The position numbers and the translations under genes are program-made. The notes below the pieces were generated by a model. That model did no database searches. It was not told the DNA's origin and saw nothing but the letters and a program-made list of their open reading frames with translations. Below, piece by piece: positions 51,843 through 64,000 of a DNA stretch of 64,000 nt (positions within the stretch are counted from its first letter, which is position 1; the number at the start of each line of letters is the position of its first letter). Source of the DNA: a virus (Duplodnaviria > Caudoviricetes); the IMG/VR virus record IMGVR_UViG_3300037067_018912, positions 192,001 through 256,000 of that record; one strand, given 5' to 3'.

Positions 51843-52448
51843 TTACCTCCTGTAATTCTGATAAATGACATCGTTCTCCAAATCAACAGGTTGTCTTGTT
51901 GGTGTTGAAACCGGGACTACTCGTCCCATATCGTAACCAAACCAACGGCCTGACAAATCATCCAACCATTTCTGCGCTTCTTGTTCGGTGTTAAATTCCA
52001 TATCGTTTGTCGACCACACATTCTCACCCTTCCCGGCAACTTCTGCACGAAATTTGGTTTGAAGATCAACTTCTTCTGCAAGTTCCATATCATGATCGGA
52101 TTGTGGAAACATCCTGTCAATAAGATTATCAAGTTTTTCGATAATATCGAAATGATTGGTGCTCATAAGAAAATCAATTTTACCTTTGAGCAGTTCGGCT
52201 TTTTTCTTATTATCCATTTCACCTGGAACATATGCCTCATCCTCAATACCTTTCTTGAATCGTTTCGCCAACGCCTTGCGTTTTGGAGTGCAGGTTGGTT
52301 TTGACATGGGTGTACAATAACCTTTATGTTCGGGATCAACAGCCTTTTGAATCCATTTCTCATCCTCATTCAAGGATATTTTGACGCCGTTTAATTTAGC
52401 CATGTTCTCAAATAACATGGTCTTGGCATCTTTTTGCTGCTTTTTCAT
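51843..52448 (-). CDS. Leader-bearing putative head protein, multi-segment
   Basis: MKKQQKDAKTMLFENMAKLN...SLNE leader; late motif at 52463-52471. Confidence 0.65.
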   Translation of the reverse strand: MKKQQKDAKTMLFENMAKLNGVKISLNEDEKWIQKAVDPEHKGYCTPMSKPTCTPKRKALAKRFKKGIEDEAYVPGEMDNKKKAELLKGKIDFLMSTNHFDIIEKLDNLIDRMFPQSDHDMELAEEVDLQTKFRAEVAGKGENVWSTNDMEFNTEQEAQKWLDDLSGRWFGYDMGRVVPVSTPTRQPVDLENDVIYQNYRR

Positions 52449-52485: not shown

Positions 52486-53706
52486 TTAATGCACTAAAAA
52501 GAACGTTCTTAAAACATCAGGTCTTTGTGTTGAAATATCTGTCTCGCCTTTTGATTGGACGATAACGTTATATGTCGGTTTATCGGCCACAGGTGCTTTC
52601 ATCATTTCATCGTGCGACAGTAATGTGCCATCGTTTGGAACATTAAACCCTTTTGAAACCCTTTGTTTCAAGACATTCATGCCGTTTTCTTTGTCCTTAA
52701 AGATTAATCTGTCATTTGCATCGACATCAAAATGATGTGGATCGCTTTTTACGAATAAATCGTTGAAATATTCGCTGCCGACGATTTCGGAAGTTTTTGC
52801 ACCCGCCAAATCAACCTTCTTCAATTGTTTTTTGTTTGCATCGACAGAAAAACTGACGACAAAATCCGGTGCATCCGTTTTCAATGACATGTTGCTGAAA
52901 TCGGACGGGAGGCGGTTCAAATTGTAAATATCTGCTACCTTGGTGTGCGCATACGGTTTGACAACGAATCCCTCGTCCTTTAATTCTTTCATTATCTCCC
53001 TACCTACTTGGTAATAGGATTTACTGAAAAAATCGCCAGAATCATTCCATCTAAAGCGCATTTCCTTGTTCACAAGACCGGGATTGTTTTTAAGTTCCAT
53101 TATTTCATTTTTCAACTTCTCTTTAAAACGTTGGGGATCGTTTAGTAAAAGGTTTAATATCCTTGTCTGTTTAAGGAAGTTGAATGGAAGCCTGACATAA
53201 TTACCCTTCCGGGCATAACAAGGTGCAACGCATTTTCCCGCACCTGGACAGGTATGGACGACAATGAAATTCTTACGGTCTTTATCATACACAATGCCTC
53301 TGAATGCTGGCAACCCGATTGTTACTGTATAAAAATCTTCGGTGGAAGATTTCAACATCTTTGCGTTACCTGTTGATATGATTTGATCCGGTTCTGCCGT
53401 GATATCGTTTATGAATGTTTGAACGTCGATTTCACCCTCTTCGGTTTTCTTAATTACTTTGTTGTGTACGATCAAGTCAGGTTTAACCCTTTTATGGGAT
53501 GGTAATGCATAATTTGCAAGTATCTTATTCAGATAATCCCTTAATTGATCTATATTCATACAAGTATGCGTCACACCTTCAAGGTCTACCTCATCCAATG
53601 GCTGTCCAGCGTTCTCGTCCGGAAGATATGTGTCGCTTACATCCACAGGCATGTCGGCAACCCTGTTCATCATTTCGAACAAACGATGCTTGTCGTTTTT
53701 AATCAT
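52486..53706 (-). CDS. GP88-like (radical-SAM-like) protein with leader
   Basis: TCPGAGKCVAPCYARKG, RFRWNDSGDF, YAHTK; N-terminus MIKNDKHRLFEMM. Confidence 0.7.
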   Translation of the reverse strand: MIKNDKHRLFEMMNRVADMPVDVSDTYLPDENAGQPLDEVDLEGVTHTCMNIDQLRDYLNKILANYALPSHKRVKPDLIVHNKVIKKTEEGEIDVQTFINDITAEPDQIISTGNAKMLKSSTEDFYTVTIGLPAFRGIVYDKDRKNFIVVHTCPGAGKCVAPCYARKGNYVRLPFNFLKQTRILNLLLNDPQRFKEKLKNEIMELKNNPGLVNKEMRFRWNDSGDFFSKSYYQVGREIMKELKDEGFVVKPYAHTKVADIYNLNRLPSDFSNMSLKTDAPDFVVSFSVDANKKQLKKVDLAGAKTSEIVGSEYFNDLFVKSDPHHFDVDANDRLIFKDKENGMNVLKQRVSKGFNVPNDGTLLSHDEMMKAPVADKPTYNVIVQSKGETDISTQRPDVLRTFFLVH

Positions 53707-56730: not shown

Positions 56731-57048
56731 ATGGGAATGAAAAAAGACACAAAAACCCTTTTGTTCGAAATGATGGAGAAGACCGTACCCGGTTTCAAGA
56801 GTACTAACGAACAACAAGCAGTATCGGGTGTACAACAACCAATAGCGGGTGACGTAAAGAATGTTCAAAATACGGTAACCACATCACAACAAACAGCAAA
56901 TTCAAGGATCGATACCCCGGATGAATTTTCACAGGCTTTTAGGGTATGGTTTTCGTCATTGGGTTTCAATCCTCAAAACAGACCGATAGCAATCGGGAGA
57001 GTTACCATTGAAGTAACAAAAATTATGAAAGAATTAGGGTACAGATAA
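56731..57048 (+). CDS. Leader-bearing putative head protein
   Basis: MKKDTKTLLFEMMEK...STNE; late motif at 56713-56720. Confidence 0.65.
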   Translation: MGMKKDTKTLLFEMMEKTVPGFKSTNEQQAVSGVQQPIAGDVKNVQNTVTTSQQTANSRIDTPDEFSQAFRVWFSSLGFNPQNRPIAIGRVTIEVTKIMKELGYR

Positions 57049-57066: not shown

Positions 57067-57097
57067 TTTGTATTTATAATTCCAAGTATTATATTTG
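57067..57097 (+). promoter_or_regulatory. Bacteroidota primary-sigma promoter for tRNA array 1, with an overlapping late motif
   Basis: TTTG (57067-57070), 19 nt, TATATTTG (57090-57097); GTATTTATA at 57070-57078. Confidence 0.75.
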
Positions 57098-57119
57098 CAA
57101 CAAATTATTTGATATTGTC

Positions 57120-57188
57120 ATGAGAAATTTAGTTCATATCCAGCCCCAACATCAACCACCGCAAGTGGAACGGGGTTACTATGTCTAA
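57120..57188 (+). CDS. Attenuator leader peptide 1 (His/Gln/Pro-rich): MRNLVHIQPQHQPPQVERGYYV
   Basis: 9 of codons 6-15 are His/Gln/Pro; the 3' end carries the antiterminator strand GAACGGGGTT. Confidence 0.85.
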   Translation: MRNLVHIQPQHQPPQVERGYYV

Positions 57189-57220
57189 ATTTTCGTAAAA
57201 AAATTTTTAGTTAAACTAAG

Positions 57221-57251
57221 GAAACCCCGTTCGCAAGAGCGGGGTTTTTTT
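57221..57251 (+). terminator. Attenuator terminator 1
   Basis: AACCCCGTTC-GCAA-GAGCGGGGTT plus T run, ending just before the first tRNA (57256). Confidence 0.9.
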
Positions 57252-57255
57252 GTTT

Positions 57256-57331
57256 CAGGGAGTGGGAAAGTCGGTAATCCGCTTGCTTCGGGAGCAAGAG
57301 ACCGCCAGTTCGAATCTGGCCTTCCTGACCA
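57256..57331 (+). tRNA. tRNA-Pro(CGG)
   Basis: Cloverleaf; loop TT-CGG-GA; encoded CCA. Confidence 0.9.
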
Positions 57332-57334
57332 TAT

Positions 57335-57408
57335 GGTGATTGTAGTTCAATTGGTAGAACGTCAGATTGTGGTTCTGATAGTTGTGGGTTCGAGTCCCAT
57401 CTTTCACC
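57335..57408 (+). tRNA. tRNA-His(GTG)
   Basis: G-1, C73, loop TT-GTG-GT; two T-T mismatches in the acceptor stem. Confidence 0.85.
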
Positions 57409-57412
57409 CAAA

Positions 57413-57520
57413 TATCACGTAAAGACGTGATAAATGAAAATATCGCCTAAAAAGGCGATAAATATAATTTATCGGCTAAAAAGGCTATAAATATAATTTA
57501 TCGGCTAAAATACCGATATT
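57413..57520 (+). repeat. Four tandem ~29-nt hairpin units
   Basis: TATCACGT-AAAG-ACGTGATA, TATCGCCT-AAAA-AGGCGATA and two TATCGGCTAAAA variants. Confidence 0.7.
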
Positions 57521-57535
57521 TTTGTAACAGAGTTC

Positions 57536-57546
57536 AGTTCTTTGAC
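57536..57546 (+). promoter_or_regulatory. boxA-like antitermination site
   Basis: AGTTCTTTGAC, identical to 61552-61562. Confidence 0.6.
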
Positions 57547-57566
57547 GTATAATAAAATTCTTTAAT

Positions 57567-57639
57567 CGGGACGTGGCGCAGTTGGTAGCGCACTTGCATG
57601 GGGTGCAAGGGGTCGGAAGTTCGAGTCTTCTTGTCCCGA
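57567..57639 (+). tRNA. tRNA-Pro(GGG)
   Basis: Cloverleaf; CTTGC-AT-GGG-GT-GCAAG. Confidence 0.9.
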
Positions 57640-57782
57640 CAGGTTTGTGTGAATAGAGATGGTTATCTGAGTGGCATACAGTGGGTTGCAAACTGCTGTG
57701 TGTTGAAAGGATGTACTGGGTTGCCTGCATGCAGTATCAATCTGACTCCCGTGAGGGGGTAGTATCGAAAGCACAACCACAA

Positions 57783-57855
57783 CGGATAGTAGCGAAGTTG
57801 GTATCGCACCTGCTTTGGGAGCAGGGGATCGTGGGTTCGAGTCCCGCCTATCCGA
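57783..57855 (+). tRNA. tRNA-Pro(TGG)
   Basis: Cloverleaf; CCTGC-TT-TGG-GA-GCAGG. Confidence 0.92.
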
Positions 57856-57864
57856 CTTTTATTA

Positions 57865-57937
57865 CGGGTAGTGGGAAAGTTGGTAATCCGCCTGATTTGG
57901 GATCAGGAGACCGCAGATTCGAGTTCTGCTTACCCGA
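57865..57937 (+). tRNA. tRNA-Pro(TGG)
   Basis: Cloverleaf; CCTGA-TT-TGG-GA-TCAGG. Confidence 0.9.
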
Positions 57938-57939
57938 CT

Positions 57940-58015
57940 GTGCTTGAAGTAGGCGTTGGTGTCCTACGCCAGATTGTGGCTCTGGTTTTCGGGGGTTCGA
58001 TTCCCCTCAAGCACC
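57940..58015 (+). tRNA. tRNA-His(GTG), atypical D arm, no encoded G-1
   Basis: CCAGA-TT-GTG-GC-TCTGG; C73. Confidence 0.8.
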
Positions 58016-58030
58016 TAAATTATTTTGAAA

Positions 58031-58321
58031 ATGAATACGAGAATTGTCATATTCCTGCTTAAAAGGATTAATCGCATAATGACCGAGTTAATGAATTATG
58101 CTGATTTACCAAAAGAAAGGTTTGATAAGTTGATATACGATTACAATTACACATATGGTGTTTTTGACAGGGTCGTCGAGAAGCACAGGCGTAATATTGA
58201 ACACATTCCCCTGATCAGGGAGTTGTCCGATTTCGAATATCACTTATACACACAGAGAGAAATGGAATTGATAAACGATGAAACTTATGATCGTCGTCAT
58301 CGTAATATTTTTCATAGATAA
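58031..58321 (+). CDS. Hypothetical protein embedded in tRNA array 1
   Basis: ~96-aa ORF exactly filling the gap between two tRNAs. Confidence 0.5.
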   Translation: MNTRIVIFLLKRINRIMTELMNYADLPKERFDKLIYDYNYTYGVFDRVVEKHRRNIEHIPLIRELSDFEYHLYTQREMELINDETYDRRHRNIFHR

Positions 58322-58323
58322 AT

Positions 58324-58396
58324 TGTCCCGTGGTGTAATTGGCAACACGTCTGACTCTGGATCAGTAGAGTGCAGGTTCGATTCCTGCCGGGACAG
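58324..58396 (+). tRNA. tRNA-Gln(CTG)
   Basis: T1-A72; TCTGA-CT-CTG-GA-TCAGT. Confidence 0.9.
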
Positions 58397-58496
58397 CGAA
58401 GTTCGGTATGAAATAGAAGGTTTTCAGAGATTTGTTCATATCGAGGTTTAGTAATTCCAAGGTCGCCAAAAGAATTAGACCAAAAAATCTCGCCAT

Positions 58497-58582
58497 TGTC
58501 CTCTGGTGGAATTGGATAAACACGTCAGTCTTTGGAACTGATGCCCACATTGGGTTTGCAGGTTCAAATCCTGCGGGGACAG
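58497..58582 (+). tRNA. tRNA-Gln(TTG) with long variable arm
   Basis: TCAGT-CT-TTG-GA-ACTGA; variable arm TGCCCACATTGGGTTT; T1-A72, G73. Confidence 0.8.
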
Positions 58583-58647
58583 CAAAATGCATAAAATTAA
58601 ATATACTTGCATAAAATCATGTATATTTTAATACGCTTGCATAAAAT

Positions 58648-58719
58648 TGCCTTATAGTGTAATGGCCAGCACACAACACTTTGGATGTTGGAGTTCAAGT
58701 TCGAATCTTGGTAAGGCAA
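58648..58719 (+). tRNA. tRNA-Gln(TTG)
   Basis: CAACA-CT-TTG-GA-TGTTG. Confidence 0.88.
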
Positions 58720-59676
58720 CTACCTCCTCCCACCGGAACTGTGACTTGATCCGCCGCTACTTGAACTGCGTGATCCACCACCACTGTAACTCCCGGAACT
58801 CCTGTTTGAAGAACCCGAATATGAAGGACTTGAACTCCTGTATGTCGATCCTGAATTCGATGGTCGTGAATAACTTGAACTGCTTGAACCTCGATAAGAT
58901 GAACCGGAATTCGATGATGGTCGTGAATAACTTGAACTTCTCGTAGTTGCCGGACGTGAATACGATGGCCTTGACTGAGTTCCTGTTGATGACGGTCTTG
59001 AATATATCGGTCTGTCTGTATTTGCCGGACGATTGTAAGTACGTGTTTGAGTACTTGTCGATGGTCGAGTGTAAGTATTACGAGATTGTGTCGTCGGCTT
59101 CACATATGTGTTACGAGTTTGTGTGGCAGTTCTGTTCGATTCGATAGTCCTTCTTGGTCCATAATACTCTGTGCGCCTGTTTGGAGAATGATTCGGATAC
59201 TGATAATAAGTGTGATGTGGCTGCCAATACCAATAATTGTGATTGTACCACGAATAACTGTAGAACGGCCTGTTATACCAACGGTAATGGGGCATGTACC
59301 AATCAAAACTATACCAAGAACCATACGGATAATACCAATCGTAATAGAATGGATCATACCAACCATAATAAGGTGAATGCCAATAAAAATCAAAATAGAA
59401 TGTTGGCCTCATCCTGACATCATAATCATCTTCCTCTTCATAATAGTTATTAACCACGGTAATGTTTTGGACAACCGTGTCCTTTTCCTGTTTTTGCTCA
59501 CCGGGGATGTAATAGACATCATCGTATTCTTCAACCTGTGTGGTTTGATATTTTTTTGCAGAGTCATTCTCCGCTTTTTCCTTGGCTTCACGATACTTCT
59601 CATAATCGGATTTCTCCTGTGCAAGGATTGGTATGGAAAATAGGAGTGCTATTAGTAATAACGCCAGTTTTTTCAT
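58720..59676 (-). CDS. Secreted Bacteroidota-like protein (signal peptide, Tyr/Trp-rich core, Ser/Arg/Gly tail)
   Basis: MKKLALLLIALLFSIPILA-Q signal peptide; YDDVYY motif; SSGGGRR end. Confidence 0.75.
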   Translation of the reverse strand: MKKLALLLIALLFSIPILAQEKSDYEKYREAKEKAENDSAKKYQTTQVEEYDDVYYIPGEQKQEKDTVVQNITVVNNYYEEEDDYDVRMRPTFYFDFYWHSPYYGWYDPFYYDWYYPYGSWYSFDWYMPHYRWYNRPFYSYSWYNHNYWYWQPHHTYYQYPNHSPNRRTEYYGPRRTIESNRTATQTRNTYVKPTTQSRNTYTRPSTSTQTRTYNRPANTDRPIYSRPSSTGTQSRPSYSRPATTRSSSYSRPSSNSGSSYRGSSSSSYSRPSNSGSTYRSSSPSYSGSSNRSSGSYSGGGSRSSSSGGSSHSSGGRR

Positions 59677-59760: not shown

Positions 59761-60477
59761 ATGAAAAAACAAATCACCAAGGAAAGGATATTTGAAGTCG
59801 TTGCAAGACTCGATAAAACATTCAAATCAAAAATAAACGAAGGACTACTGCCGGGAGAAGATTCCATGTCACAAAACCTCAATGAGGTACAGACAAGGTC
59901 GTTGTCCGAGATCGCACAAGAGATATACCAAGATTGGCGACCAGTCAGTCCGTATGCAAAACCGTACCTTGAAGCAATGTCGTCGTTAAACTCAATTAAC
60001 GACAAATACATGTTTGATAGCGGGGACATGATTGTCAGATACTTCCTTTCGAATGCATCGACTTGGCGTGGCGAAACTGCAAAACGCATTAAATCAGAAC
60101 TAAAGGCGATGTTGGGTATGAAAGAAAACGTCAACTTCAGTGATAATCCTGGTGCACCTCCGGGGGATATTCCTCCACTTCCTGCCGCAGAACCCCAACT
60201 TCCTACCACAGAACCTACTCCTCCTATTGTAAATGAAGGTTCGGGATTGGGCACTCCGGTGAACAAATGGGTTTATTTCTCGTTCAATTATCCTCCCGGC
60301 TTTATCGAAAAGGTTTGGGCAGATGATCCAAATATAGTTCAACATCTAAATGAAAAATTCGGTGCATATTACGACAAAGTCGGTGCGGTAGGTGTAATGA
60401 ACAAATTCTATGTTGAATTGGACTCTGGGAATCAAAAGAAACTTGAAGATTGGGTCTTGGCAAATTACAAGGGGTAA
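59761..60477 (+). CDS. Leader-bearing putative head polyprotein
   Basis: MKKQITKERIFEVVARLDKTF...INE; domains separated by LNE/MKE/VNE; late motif at 59737-59745. Confidence 0.7.
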   Translation: MKKQITKERIFEVVARLDKTFKSKINEGLLPGEDSMSQNLNEVQTRSLSEIAQEIYQDWRPVSPYAKPYLEAMSSLNSINDKYMFDSGDMIVRYFLSNASTWRGETAKRIKSELKAMLGMKENVNFSDNPGAPPGDIPPLPAAEPQLPTTEPTPPIVNEGSGLGTPVNKWVYFSFNYPPGFIEKVWADDPNIVQHLNEKFGAYYDKVGAVGVMNKFYVELDSGNQKKLEDWVLANYKG

Positions 60478-60491
60478 AAACAACATTAATC

Positions 60492-61268
60492 ATGAAAAAA
60501 ACAACAAGACGGAGACTTTTCGAAGTGGTACAAAGGCTCGACAAGACGTTCAAACCCACATCAAGGTTTAAATTAAATGAAACCGGGGAATGGGCGAACG
60601 ATGAAGACGATCTTGCATGGATTGAAATGTTAAAAAGTGAGGTTCAAAAAATCGAATCCGCAACCAATGGCAAATTGGAACTTATTGATGTCAGAGGATT
60701 CGATAAATACCAAGGACCATACGCCCAAGTTAAGATTAACGGTAGGAATTACAGGATTTGGACAGCAGGTGAAGGGGATTATCCTCTTCTTTGGATTGAT
60801 AATTATCCTGTTGACAATACTTCGGCGGAAGGAATGAACCCCGGATATGCGGGAACGCCGGAAATGATTATAGAACTCCTTAACTCACAAACTCCGGTGA
60901 CCGAGAATCTCTCAAGCAATCGCTTGAATGTTAACGATATATTGGACAATTACCTTGAAGCCGCTTTTTGGACAGAAGAACAACAAAATCCTGAACTGCA
61001 AAATAAGATGGTTAGCGATATTGATTCGGCTTCGCTCCAAAAAACGAAAAATGATATTATGCAGTTTCTTCGGACGGCATTGCAACAAGCCGGAGAGGAA
61101 TTAAAAACTTATGATTCCAAAAGTATCGGCCACAATCTTTGGCTGTCAAGAAATGGACACGGGGCGGGTTTTTTCGATGACAACAACGATAAATTGCAGG
61201 ACATTGCCAGAAACATGAAATCCAGTGACTTATACATCGGCGACGATGGAAAAGTCTATCTCACATAA
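60492..61268 (+). CDS. Leader-bearing putative head polyprotein
   Basis: MKKTTRRRLFEVVQRLDKTF...KLNE; C-terminal GHNLWLSRNGHGAGFFD domain. Confidence 0.7.
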   Translation: MKKTTRRRLFEVVQRLDKTFKPTSRFKLNETGEWANDEDDLAWIEMLKSEVQKIESATNGKLELIDVRGFDKYQGPYAQVKINGRNYRIWTAGEGDYPLLWIDNYPVDNTSAEGMNPGYAGTPEMIIELLNSQTPVTENLSSNRLNVNDILDNYLEAAFWTEEQQNPELQNKMVSDIDSASLQKTKNDIMQFLRTALQQAGEELKTYDSKSIGHNLWLSRNGHGAGFFDDNNDKLQDIARNMKSSDLYIGDDGKVYLT

Positions 61269-61295: not shown

Positions 61296-61334
61296 TTTGT
61301 TTGTATTGTAACATTTTTTACCTTTGCCTCGTAT
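61296..61334 (+). promoter_or_regulatory. Promoter(s) of tRNA array 2
   Basis: TTTG (61296-61299), 19 nt, TACCTTTG (61319-61326); overlapping TGTAAC-N16-TCGTAT. Confidence 0.7.
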
Positions 61335-61372
61335 TTAGACTTGAACGATTATAAACAACAAGAATTTTTAAA

Positions 61373-61465
61373 ATGAAAAAGATGCTCGACATATTAGTAG
61401 TCCTATCAGTGGCCGTCCTGTTGTGGGATGATGCTGCAGAGGAAAAACTACATGAAGTCGGGTAA
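61373..61465 (+). CDS. Attenuator leader peptide 2: MKKMLDILVVLSVAVLLWDDAAEEKLHEVG
   Basis: 18 of codons 5-24 are L/V/A/D/E/W; the 3' end carries the antiterminator strand TGAAGTCGGGT. Confidence 0.85.
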   Translation: MKKMLDILVVLSVAVLLWDDAAEEKLHEVG

Positions 61466-61500
61466 TATTGGATACTTATTACATCTCCTTTCCTAACACG

Positions 61501-61535
61501 AAAAGACCCGGCTTCAAAAAAGACCGGGTTTTTTT
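61501..61535 (+). terminator. Attenuator terminator 2
   Basis: GACCCGG (61505-61511) pairs with CCGGGTT (61524-61530), followed by a T run. Confidence 0.88.
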
Positions 61536-61551
61536 GTTTTCGGGGAGATGA

Positions 61552-61564
61552 AGTTCTTTGACAT
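61552..61564 (+). promoter_or_regulatory. boxA-like antitermination site
   Basis: AGTTCTTTGACAT between the attenuator and the first tRNA. Confidence 0.65.
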
Positions 61565-61574
61565 GCTGGAATTT

Positions 61575-61649
61575 GGTGCGTTAGTTCAGATTGGTTAGAA
61601 TATCGGCCTGTCACGCCGAGGGTCATGGGTTCAAGTCCCATACGCACCG
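61575..61649 (+). tRNA. tRNA-Asp(GTC)
   Basis: TCGGC-CT-GTC-AC-GCCGA; G73. Confidence 0.93.
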
Positions 61650-61713
61650 CAAAACGCTTATCGGAAGGTAGGCGAAGCAAGGTCGTTTGAATACGTAATA
61701 GAACGATCTTGAA

Positions 61714-61787
61714 AGTCCTGTAGTTTATACGGGTGTGAATGCCCCTGCGCACGGGGGTGGTTGCTGGTTCAAATCCAGTCAGGACTG
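61714..61787 (+). tRNA. tRNA-like RNA with non-canonical anticodon arm
   Basis: Perfect acceptor AGTCCTG/CAGGACT and normal T arm; anticodon arm CCCCTGCGCACGGGGG lacks a standard 7-nt U33 loop. Confidence 0.55.
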
Positions 61788-61792
61788 CAAAT

Positions 61793-61868
61793 CGTTTCGT
61801 CGGCCTCTTCGGAGAGGAACTGGCCTGTCACGTCAGTAAAATAGAGGGTTCGAATCCCTCCGGGACGG
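61793..61868 (+). tRNA. tRNA-Asp(GTC), atypical D arm
   Basis: CTGGC-CT-GTC-AC-GTCAG; D arm CCTCT-TCGG-AGAGG. Confidence 0.75.
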
Positions 61869-61870
61869 CA

Positions 61871-61992
61871 AAATATCAGAACAATGAAAGTATTGGTTCG
61901 AGTCCAAGGTGGGATAATTCAGATGGCGCAGTAATGCTAAAAGTATTCCTGAACATCCTACCGCAAGGTAAAACGGATGCCTTCTGATATTT
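61871..61992 (+). ncRNA. Candidate structured RNA
   Basis: Closed by an 11-bp AAATATCAGAA/TTCTGATATTT stem; contains a T-arm-like TTGG-TTCGAGT-CCAA and a GCAA-capped hairpin. Confidence 0.5.
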
Positions 61993-61997
61993 TATAT

Positions 61998-62073
61998 GCT
62001 GCGTTCGGCAAGTCCGGTTCAAGCCACCAGACCTTCAATCTGGTCATCATGGGTTCAAATCCCATACGCAGTA
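61998..62073 (+). tRNA. tRNA-Glu(TTC) with C33
   Basis: CCAGA-CC-TTC-AA-TCTGG. Confidence 0.78.
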
Positions 62074-62099
62074 CAATCCTCGAAAATCAGTGGTTATCA

Positions 62100-62268
62100 T
62101 TTGTCCGCTGAAGACAAACAGTAAAGCAAAAAAATCGGGGCATACCCCCGCATCAGAGAGTCACTGAAACTTTACAACCCTTCCAAGAGGGTGTCGTTTG
62201 TTGAAAGATGCATAGTTTCCTCATAATTAAGGAGGTATTGCATTCCAACTTGGTAGTGGACGGACAAT
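62100..62268 (+). ncRNA. Candidate multibranch RNA
   Basis: Stems TTGTCCG/CGGACAA (closing), GACAAAC/GTTTGTT and ATGCA/TGCAT. Confidence 0.4.
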
Positions 62269-62271
62269 CAT

Positions 62272-62343
62272 GCTCGGTTCTTCTAACGGTCAGGAATTCG
62301 GGTTTTCATCCCGGCAATGGGGGTTCGATTCCCCCACCGAGTA
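62272..62343 (+). tRNA. tRNA-Glu(TTC)
   Basis: TCGGG-TT-TTC-AT-CCCGG. Confidence 0.88.
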
Positions 62344-62348
62344 CTAAT

Positions 62349-62412
62349 AATGTTGGTTATATCATACATTAAGTGGTAAAATTAAGGTTAATGTTGGTTA
62401 TATCATACATTA
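62349..62412 (+). repeat. Direct repeat, 2 x 23 nt
   Basis: AATGTTGGTTATATCATACATTA at 62349 and 62390. Confidence 0.85.
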
Positions 62413-62448
62413 TGGAGTGTTTTTGTTAAACATATTTTACATTATCAT

Positions 62449-62521
62449 GTTCGGTTCTTCTAACTGGCCAGGAAAATAGGTTCTCAGCCTAAGAATAAGG
62501 GTTCGACCCCCTTACCGAATA
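62449..62521 (+). tRNA. tRNA-Glu(CTC)
   Basis: TAGG-TT-CTC-AG-CCTA. Confidence 0.85.
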
Positions 62522-62527
62522 CTTGAA

Positions 62528-62605
62528 GTCCTTTTAGTTCAGTTGGTTCAGAATGCCGCTTTCACAGAGCGGAGGTCGTTGGTTCGAATCCAACAAAGGA
62601 CACCA
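62528..62605 (+). tRNA. tRNA-Val(CAC)
   Basis: CCGCT-TT-CAC-AG-AGCGG; encoded CCA. Confidence 0.9.
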
Positions 62606-62695
62606 AATCAAACAAAAGCCAGTAAATGGCATTTAGTGTCTTTTGTTTGAAATTGGCAACGAACGATATTTAGTGCCAAAATTGTGATAATTTTC

Positions 62696-62769
62696 GCTCC
62701 TTTAACTCAGTCCGGGAGAGTGTCTGCCTTACATGCAGAAAGTCGGGGGTTCAAACCCCTCAAGGAGCA
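62696..62769 (+). tRNA. tRNA-Val(TAC)
   Basis: TCTGC-CT-TAC-AT-GCAGA. Confidence 0.92.
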
Positions 62770-62822
62770 CAAAACTATAAATCGGCAGCAAACGGCATTT
62801 AGTGCCGATTTATAGTTTACAA

Positions 62823-62897
62823 GTCCCTTTAGTTCAGTTGGTTCAGAACATCACCTTGACAGGGTGGGGGTCGTTGGTTCGAATCCAACAGGGGACA
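62823..62897 (+). tRNA. tRNA-Val(GAC)
   Basis: TCACC-TT-GAC-AG-GGTGG. Confidence 0.9.
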
Positions 62898-62995
62898 CAT
62901 GGGTTTGCAGACTTGGACAACAAATATGTCGGCAATTGCCAATATATCTTCCAACAAGATATAATACGCTGATATTGGTCTGTGAACCTATACCT

Positions 62996-63079
62996 CTCAT
63001 TGTGGTGGAATTGGTAGACACGTGCGTTCGAGGGGCGCATGCACGAAAGTGTTTGCGGGTTCAACTCCCGCCGATGAGA
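62996..63079 (+). tRNA. tRNA-Leu(GAG) with C33
   Basis: TGCGT-TC-GAG-GG-GCGCA; long variable arm; A73. Confidence 0.8.
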
Positions 63080-63087
63080 CAATAAAT

Positions 63088-63161
63088 GCGGACGTAGCCG
63101 AATTGGCATAGGCGTCAGTCTTAGGAACTGATTTTTGTGGGTTCAAGTCCCACCGTCCGTA
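63088..63161 (+). tRNA. tRNA-Leu(TAG), short variable loop
   Basis: TCAGT-CT-TAG-GA-ACTGA; variable loop TTTTT; 74 nt. Confidence 0.85.
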
Positions 63162-63303
63162 CAAAAGGTGCATGACAGCAATAAGCAGTTTGGACTGCAT
63201 CACCTGTGCCGAGTTATCCTTAAATGTGAAGGAGTAATACCTTCTGAGTCTTTACATGACACTGCTTTATGTGTATTGGTTGGATAACTAAAAAGGCACA
63301 CAT

Positions 63304-63377
63304 GCAGATGTAGCCGAACTGGTATAGGCAATCGTTTCAGGGGCGATAATCTGCGGGTTCGACTCCCGCCATCTGTA
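63304..63377 (+). tRNA. tRNA-Leu(CAG), short variable loop
   Basis: ATCGT-TT-CAG-GG-GCGAT; variable loop AATCT; 74 nt. Confidence 0.85.
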
Positions 63378-63458
63378 CGACCTTATTTTGGGTAACGAAG
63401 CCAATAGTCCCAAACACTCAGGTAGAAAATAATGGTTTCTGCATAAGGACAACTATAT

Positions 63459-63532
63459 GGGGTCGTAGCATAACTGGCTAATGCACCTGCCTTGCAAGCA
63501 GGGGACTGAGGGTTCAAGTCCCTTCGATTCCA
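63459..63532 (+). tRNA. tRNA-Ala(TGC)
   Basis: CCTGC-CT-TGC-AA-GCAGG; G3:U70. Confidence 0.92.
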
Positions 63533-63601
63533 CGCTGTCGGGTTTTTCGCACTTTTAGATTTCCGTGAGGTCAATTGACTGAGAAAGAAAAAGTGCAATT
63601 T

Positions 63602-63676
63602 GGGTCATTAGTTTAGACGGCTAAAACACTTGGTTTGCACCCAGGAGATCACGAGTTCGAGGCTCGTATGTATCCA
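63602..63676 (+). tRNA. tRNA-Ala(TGC), bulged acceptor stem
   Basis: CTTGG-TT-TGC-AC-CCAGG; G3:U70. Confidence 0.75.
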
Positions 63677-63741
63677 CCTGACGGGACTGTTTAGGATTTT
63701 CATAGGACTCCCAATGCAGTGCGCATAGAAAATCCAATTCC

Positions 63742-63815
63742 GGGGTCGTAGTTCAAATGGATAGAGCACCTGCCTGGCAGGCAGGGGGTTGAGGGTTCAA
63801 GTCCCTTCGATTCCA
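63742..63815 (+). tRNA. tRNA-Ala(GGC)
   Basis: CCTGC-CT-GGC-AG-GCAGG. Confidence 0.92.
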
Positions 63816-63881
63816 CTGAGACAGACTGTTAGGATTTCATAGTACCTGCTGCGTGTGGGTAGAAGCGTAGAAATTCAAATT

Positions 63882-63955
63882 GGGGTATTGGTTCAGATGG
63901 CTACAACGTCTGCTCCGCAAGCAGAAGACCGGGGGTTCGAGTCCCCCATACTCCA
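63882..63955 (+). tRNA. tRNA-Ala(CGC) with C33
   Basis: TCTGC-TC-CGC-AA-GCAGA; G3:U70. Confidence 0.85.
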
Positions 63956-63960
63956 CAACA

Positions 63961-64000
63961 AATGTAGTAGCATCCATTGGTGAGGTAAGCGGTCTCCAAA
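63961..64000 (+). tRNA. Probable tRNA-Trp(CCA), truncated by window end
   Basis: ...GCGGT-CT-CCA-AA at the window edge. Confidence 0.6.

Follow-up and report, generated by a model that had tools for sequence, protein, structure and literature searches.

The DNA analysed here (the window, 64,000 nucleotides long) covers positions 192001–256000 of the viral record IMGVR_UViG_3300037067_018912, a genome of 357,275 bp that carries a direct terminal repeat and is rated complete. It belongs to a T4-like jumbo phage encoding a T4 gp23-type capsid protein and a terminase. The nearest cultured relatives by capsid protein, Flavobacterium immuto phages and a Microcystis phage, show only ~42–45% identity, and blastn searches against cultured phages returned matches to tRNA bodies only. 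Three sigma-factor domains are encoded in the genome and no gene for an RNA polymerase beta subunit was found in it, so transcription would be carried out by the host enzyme. The whole genome has 60 tRNA calls and a tmRNA.

Near the end of the window, a block comprising a promoter, a leader and a terminator (61296–61564) is followed by 17 tRNA or tRNA-like genes (61575–64000, with the end of the array at 64043, outside the window): two Asp, one odd tRNA-like gene, three Glu, three Val, three Leu, four Ala and one Trp, all on the plus strand, as are the elements of the block. The putative promoter (61296–61326) consists of a −33 TTTG and a −7 TAnnTTTG separated by a 19-nt spacer, and the same motif is found before all four tRNA arrays of the genome and in relatives. 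This form is the consensus of the Bacteroidota primary sigma factor, and because the phage promoters have it, the host is probably a member of the Bacteroidota; a sigma-70 promoter scan is unsuited to promoters of this type. Downstream is a leader ORF of 30 codons (61373–61465) with an A-rich start context and no Shine-Dalgarno sequence, in which every codon named by the original prediction is present. Neither this ORF nor its four neighbours have a match in Pfam. Within it, codons 5–24 (61385–61444) form a control window in which 18 of the 20 codons specify Asp, Glu, Val, Leu, Ala or Trp, including a CTA codon at 61403–61405 that is relocated relative to most homologs (see below).

Four pairing segments can be traced through the leader and its terminator. 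Segment 1 (61384–61392, codons 4–7) is the predicted anti-antiterminator, the partner of segment 2 in the untranslated leader (−11.8 kcal/mol). Segment 2 (61453–61463, codons 27–30, with the stop codon at its end) is the antiterminator strand, as judged from pairing and from comparison with homologs. Segments 3 and 4 (61505–61535) make up a predicted intrinsic terminator, with its hairpin at 61505–61530 and its U tract at 61529–61535. The pairing of segment 2 with the 5′ arm of this hairpin (61506–61516), proposed in the original prediction, extends over 11 bp with one U–G pair and has a duplex energy of −19.5 kcal/mol; the region folds more stably than its shuffles (z = −3.3). Just 3′ of the terminator is a motif resembling the boxA of rRNA-operon leaders (61553–61564), which is conserved in relatives; boxA sites in the leaders of stable RNAs are bound by NusB/S10. 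At two bacterial loci, L203 and L211, the same letters lie 57–62 nt 5′ of a 16S rRNA gene. The motif may help polymerase through kilobases of untranslated RNA.

All anticodons that had been listed for the array from the sequence are found, including Trp(CCA), which had been called probable and whose gene spans the window end (63961–64043). It had also been expected that tRNAs for leader codons left unmatched might lie past the window. By position this holds for Leu-TAA and Leu-CAA, which are located 2.5–4 kb further on together with a tRNA with a CAT anticodon (Met or Ile2, genome position 260039). These genes, and likewise the tmRNA, are preceded by a second full promoter at genome position 256344, so that they may not depend on the leader alone. 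The Ile, Ser, Lys and Gly tRNAs, mentioned as further possibilities, sit in two other arrays with leaders of their own.

The array has several peculiarities. The odd gene at 61714–61788 (Rfam tRNA, 40 bits) combines a Val-like acceptor stem with an anticodon loop of 8 nt that reads ambiguously (ARAGORN 'gcgc'), and extra or odd Asp-like genes are frequent in relatives at the equivalent site. Long imperfect hairpins with 21-bp arms and a common motif are found directly 3′ of Val tRNA genes (62608–62650 and 62772–62818), and related spacer elements precede Ala tRNAs (~63684–63740 and ~63825–63880); it is possible that these are processing signals or small RNAs. An exact 24-nt direct repeat (62348–62371 and 62389–62412) lies between two Glu tRNA genes. 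Elsewhere in the tRNA region, the tmRNA (genome 257755–258118) has a conserved tag peptide and a boxA-like motif of its own, and is also present in two relatives (L001 and L004). At the end of the region is a tRNA with an amber anticodon (CTA; genome 282907–282981), a possible suppressor, which is kept across the clade (also in G001, G006, G007, G009 and G010).

The same layout stands before all four tRNA arrays of the genome, and together they cover 20 amino acids: Pro/His/Gln; Asp/Glu/Val/Leu/Ala/Trp/Met; Lys/Tyr; and Thr/Cys/Asn/Ile/Ser/Phe/Gly/Arg. The first of these is also in the window, where a promoter, a His/Gln/Pro leader (57120–57188), an antiterminator strand (57168–57177) and a terminator (57223–57251) occupy 57067–57251 of the plus strand, followed by the Pro/His/Gln array at 57256–58720 on the same strand. 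Each of the four leaders is enriched in the amino acids of its own array (p = 3 × 10−5, 1 × 10−5, 0.02 and 2 × 10−4), and the true assignment of leaders to arrays is the best of 24. In the focal leader, the amino acids of the array, counting Met, account for 22 of 29 residues, where 10.3 are expected (p = 1 × 10−5). When the 55 predicted intrinsic terminators of the genome are ordered by the helix that the 5′ arm can form with the upstream 60 nt, the array terminators take ranks 1–4 (the focal one is third), and none of the others has a full promoter within 330 nt. The terminator preceding the Lys/Tyr array recurs letter for letter after it (genome positions 264740 and 265854), and the second copy is without an antiterminator partner.

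Homologs were collected by scanning viral and metagenome contigs at the protein level and with DNA patterns, together with regions cut from longer records, which gave 96 distinct cassettes of the focal type with 94 distinct leaders. The search patterns were anchored on the terminator core, on the boxA-like motif or on part of the leader, and only sequences with a Trp motif were extracted. Because the homologs were retrieved by motif patterns, conservation of the letters fixed in this way, those of the core included, is at least partly circular; the covariation and composition tests described below were restricted to letters left free in the patterns. A scan of 185,579 prokaryote genomes with a terminator plus boxA pattern returned full cassettes only in phage-like contigs binned into metagenome-assembled genomes (MAGs) and none on a clear chromosome, which is weak evidence of absence from chromosomes because the pattern is narrow. 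The contigs concerned, JBAZIW010000001.1 (L219) and CAYPJS010000146.1 (L199), belong to the clade of the focal phage and lie inside GTDB MAGs labelled Paceibacterota and Anaerolinea. A separate locus on a Nitrospiraceae MAG contig (L208:2215–5279) carries 25 tRNAs behind a terminator and a boxA-like motif, and no leader that clearly matches them; L143 resembles it.

Leaders and arrays have evolved together. Across 20 cassette types, not all of them independent and several unrelated in sequence, the summed match between leader and array is 67, compared with 12.8 ± 4.5 under permutation and a maximum of 37.7 in 200,000 permutations. Of the 20 leaders, 16 match their own array best and three second best (one window is mis-set), and in 16 types every amino acid of the array is present in the control window. 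Val is found in the control window of all 45 cassettes whose array has a Val tRNA and is missing from 10 of the 11 whose array has none, although the loss of Val is a single event on the tree. Where Arg-ACG has entered the Pro/His/Gln array, the leader has gained Arg (G046, G019, L144, L164 and L196), and in L161, where Arg is in the Lys/Tyr array, the leader is Arg-rich. In G010, Trp is gone from both the array and the leader of the focal type and is present in both parts of the Thr/Ser cassette. The partition of G037 is wholly different (His/Trp/Ser/Asn/Arg; Cys/Val/Leu; Phe/Glu/Asp/Ala; Pro/Gln/Thr/Gly/Lys), with leaders that match each array, and four other relatives (L056, L051, L108 and L175) show yet other partitions.

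It is very probable that ribosome-mediated transcription attenuation controls the phage tRNA operon and provides negative feedback on tRNA supply. Host RNA polymerase would start at the Bacteroidota-type promoter and a host ribosome would translate the 30-codon leader. When codons 5–24 are read fast, the ribosome would reach the last codons or the stop codon and cover segment 2, the terminator would fold and no tRNAs would be made. When any class of charged Asp, Glu, Val, Leu, Ala or Trp tRNA is scarce, the ribosome would stall upstream; segment 2, left free, would capture the 5′ arm of the terminator before the 3′ arm becomes available, and polymerase would enter the array, possibly with help from the boxA-like site. 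An untranslated leader would be mostly OFF owing to the helix between segments 1 and 2. Since the product of the operon would be the very molecule that is sensed, the loop would be one of direct negative feedback.

The attenuator reading of the original prediction is supported by leader–array co-evolution, by covariation and by the geometry of the ribosome footprint. Numbered by codon before the segment-2 core, array residues make up 93–100% of positions −15 to −5, 51% of −4, 85% of −3, 0% of −2 and 20% of −1. When the nascent RNA of the focal leader is folded under a ribosome mask, the antiterminator forms with codons 2–24 in the A site and is lost from codon 25 on. In 32 homologs treated in the same way, the median probability of the antiterminator is 0.85–0.95 for upstream stalls and, depending on the mask (15 to 9 nt), the probability falls to ~0 beyond codon −6 to −4; without a ribosome, the median is 0.03. 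The boundary in composition (codon −5/−4) thus coincides with the simulated switch for 9–12-nt masks, and in the trp attenuator the ribosome masks ~10 nt downstream (PMC4615214). The antiterminator (−17.7 kcal/mol) is the best local fold until the transcript end reaches ~61530, inside the U tract. In the full-length transcript the minimum-energy fold is invariably that of the terminator, and control must therefore be kinetic, as it is in known attenuators.

An attenuator of this geometry might instead sense general translation speed or a loss of transcription–translation coupling, serving infection timing or host shut-off, with codon content being secondary. Any slowing within the 20-codon window would trip the switch, and when the focal leader is untranslated a short nascent RNA favours the antiterminator. 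However, such a sensor would have no need of four leaders with disjoint compositions, or of residues that are gained and lost as tRNA genes move between arrays, and in most homologs the untranslated state is OFF, all of which makes this explanation improbable.

Covariation with the terminator arm can be seen in the flank of segment 2. The four bases 5′ of its core form 148 Watson–Crick pairs with the terminator arm across the homologs, compared with 93 ± 7 after shuffling (0 of 5000 shuffles; 84 distinct pairs) and with 40–121 in slid controls. At position −2, all four pair types occur among the homologs, A–U, C–G and U–A included, and in the core of one phage a G–C pair is replaced by A–U through a compensated change. 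In other cassette types the whole core is replaced on both strands of the helix. A tree-corrected count, which is underpowered, points in the expected direction, with 3.6 changes in the same sense and 0.1 in the opposite one (p ~0.2). For segment 1, the best partner site is the same in 77 of 94 homologs, and 28% beat 95% of synonymous recodings, a modest excess. The frame in which the segment-2 motif is read (0, 1 or 2) differs between phages, which indicates that selection acts on the RNA.

The same comparison bears on the peptide. The original prediction had named, as an outcome that would count against it, a conserved membrane peptide without antiterminator pairing, and this is not what the homologs carry. 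The ORF could still encode a functional small protein, perhaps a membrane protein, followed by an ordinary leaky terminator: its product is hydrophobic (the best 19-residue Kyte–Doolittle mean is 1.86, and about half of the homologs have ≥1.6) and its LLW motif is conserved. However, no uncharged run exceeds 8 residues in 58 of 94 homologs, short of a membrane span of ~18–20 residues, the hydropathy drops to 0.3 in some homologs, the C-terminal motif changes frame, and the sister leaders are hydrophilic. A small protein would also leave unexplained both the complement of the terminator and the tracking of the array, and we regard it as very improbable. Less credible still is a constitutive array with an incidental ORF, in which segment 2, which does resemble the 3′ arm of the terminator, is a duplicated arm or a processing stem and the boxA-like motif gives constitutive antitermination, because the motif is downstream of the terminator and cannot override it, and 94 homologs retain both the ORF and its composition, with indels that span whole codons.

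Within the attenuation model, the level at which tRNAs are sensed can be examined through codon choice. The focal leader contains an exact codon for 15 of the 16 anticodon types of its array (p = 0.003 given genome codon usage and 0.02 given uniform usage), a near-complete match that is the extreme of the family. One-to-one tracking of anticodons by codons was rejected, as no association was found for 11 pairs in 44 full arrays; for example, Leu-AAG is present in 29 arrays and CTT in only one of their leaders. Excess codon diversity is significant in the focal leader only, not in the three sister leaders of the genome, and across homologs the excess is small (11.4 distinct codons compared with 10.4–11.0). 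The codons of separately decoded classes are another matter, one per class being conserved. CTA, which accounts for 3% of the Leu codons of the genome, is found in 96% of control windows, compared with 16% expected, and TTA in 100%, compared with 66%. In the 12 leaders that have lost CTA at its usual site, it is found elsewhere in 8, compared with 1 of the 82 leaders that retain it. Relocation corresponds to ~5 of 9 independent events (p ~0.007), of which the focal genome, with CTA at codon 11, is one case. A local hairpin around the Leu-Leu-Trp codons could be the source of part of the CTA bias, but not of its relocation. CGC is present in 6 of 6 leaders of the Pro/His/Gln/Arg type (with Arg-ACG alone), CGN making up 36% of Arg codons, and all 24 leaders of the Thr/Ser type contain both Arg boxes (13.9 expected) and ATA (16.6 expected).

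These patterns suggest that sensing probably takes place at the level of separately decoded codon classes. The isoacceptor-level sensing that the original prediction had drawn from broad synonymous sampling therefore stands per decoded codon class, as seen in the retained or relocated CTA, in CGC and in the two Arg boxes, and is not supported as a one-to-one match to the anticodons of the phage. A more speculative extension, which we take seriously without leaning towards it, is that each leader holds at least one codon for every separately decoded tRNA class of its array, so that a host anticodon nuclease, by cutting just one isoacceptor, would open the one operon that replaces it. The four cassettes would then amount to an inducible, code-wide counter-defence acting through the ribosome.

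The E. coli thrL and ilvGMEDA leaders are multivalent leader-peptide attenuators of amino-acid biosynthetic operons. Like them and trpL, the phage cassette has a short ORF with control codons, predicted alternative 2:3 and 3:4 pairings with a possible 1:2 pairing, an intrinsic terminator and a proposed readout of charged tRNA. Unlike them, it lies in a phage, it would control tRNA genes rather than enzymes, and it would sense six or seven amino acids through single varied codons spread over a 20-codon window instead of runs, and four such cassettes tile the genetic code. The attenuator of the E. coli phenylalanyl-tRNA synthetase operon pheST (with the leader pheM) is an example of ribosome-mediated attenuation of a translation component with feedback on charged tRNA. 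That loop would be shared with the phage cassette, but in pheM it concerns one amino acid, a protein product and a cellular gene. T-box riboswitches also let tRNA charging choose between a terminator and an antiterminator (PMC4695836, PMC11404447). They bind uncharged tRNA directly and need no ORF, whereas a translated leader would respond both to the loss of a tRNA and to a lack of charging, and a T-box would not respond in the same way to a destroyed tRNA. A T-box was considered for this locus and rejected, since neither its Stem I with the specifier loop nor its antiterminator bulge is indicated by any Rfam match. The Rfam search gave no match to a T-box or to a leader family at the gathering score or at E ≤ 0.1; its matches are tRNAs and one sub-threshold 17-nt tmRNA match.

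Because the loop would repair a shortage of tRNA, and extra tRNA is no cure for amino-acid starvation, tRNA loss or insufficiency during infection is favoured over starvation as the likely stimulus. Host anticodon nucleases, host RNA decay and demand are all candidate causes and are indistinguishable here. [quoted passage not shown] The focal phage resembles such anti-defence systems in having a large tRNA set that could replace depleted host tRNA, and it also encodes RtcB (genome 348880–349941) and a CCA-adding/poly(A) polymerase domain (genome 103924–104310, in a 1510-aa frame), with CCA being encoded in only ~6 of 58 tRNA genes. It differs in the proposed sensing and on-demand control, which are not described for anti-defence tRNAs. 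The string 'attenuat' occurs 0 times in PMC11464382 and PMC13015707, the words attenuation, leader and terminator are absent from a 2026 survey of phage tRNAs, and no report of attenuation of phage tRNA genes was found in the literature searched, which takes in few subscription papers. The cassettes would thus represent a known mechanism, ribosome-mediated attenuation, in a new role, reaching beyond enzyme operons and beyond cells to the tRNA genes of a virus.

The open question of why phages carry tRNAs is more than 50 years old (PMC10264068). Codon compensation predicts constitutive expression of these genes, whereas a sensor that opens a given block of tRNAs only while its own codons are being read slowly argues for replacement of a depleted pool, an idea that a 270-nt reporter makes testable. 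The leaders could also tell which tRNA classes become scarce during infection, and they could serve as compact genetic sensors that report whether chosen tRNAs are charged or destroyed.

Other features of the surrounding genome deserve mention. Several unrelated ORFs of the window (51843–52448, 52486–53706, 56731–57048, 59761–60477 and 60492–61268) open with a similar N-terminal motif, in which basic residues are followed by LFE-M/V...K-L/V-D; three of them were searched against Pfam and gave no match. Between the two arrays of the window, the minus strand carries a 318-aa ORF (58720–59676) that has no Pfam match and contains a signal peptide, a Tyr/Trp-rich middle and a Ser/Arg/Gly-rich tail. 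The motif TGTAAC is present in the spacer of the focal promoter (61307–61312) and recurs in the loops of several terminators at genome positions 307154–318328.
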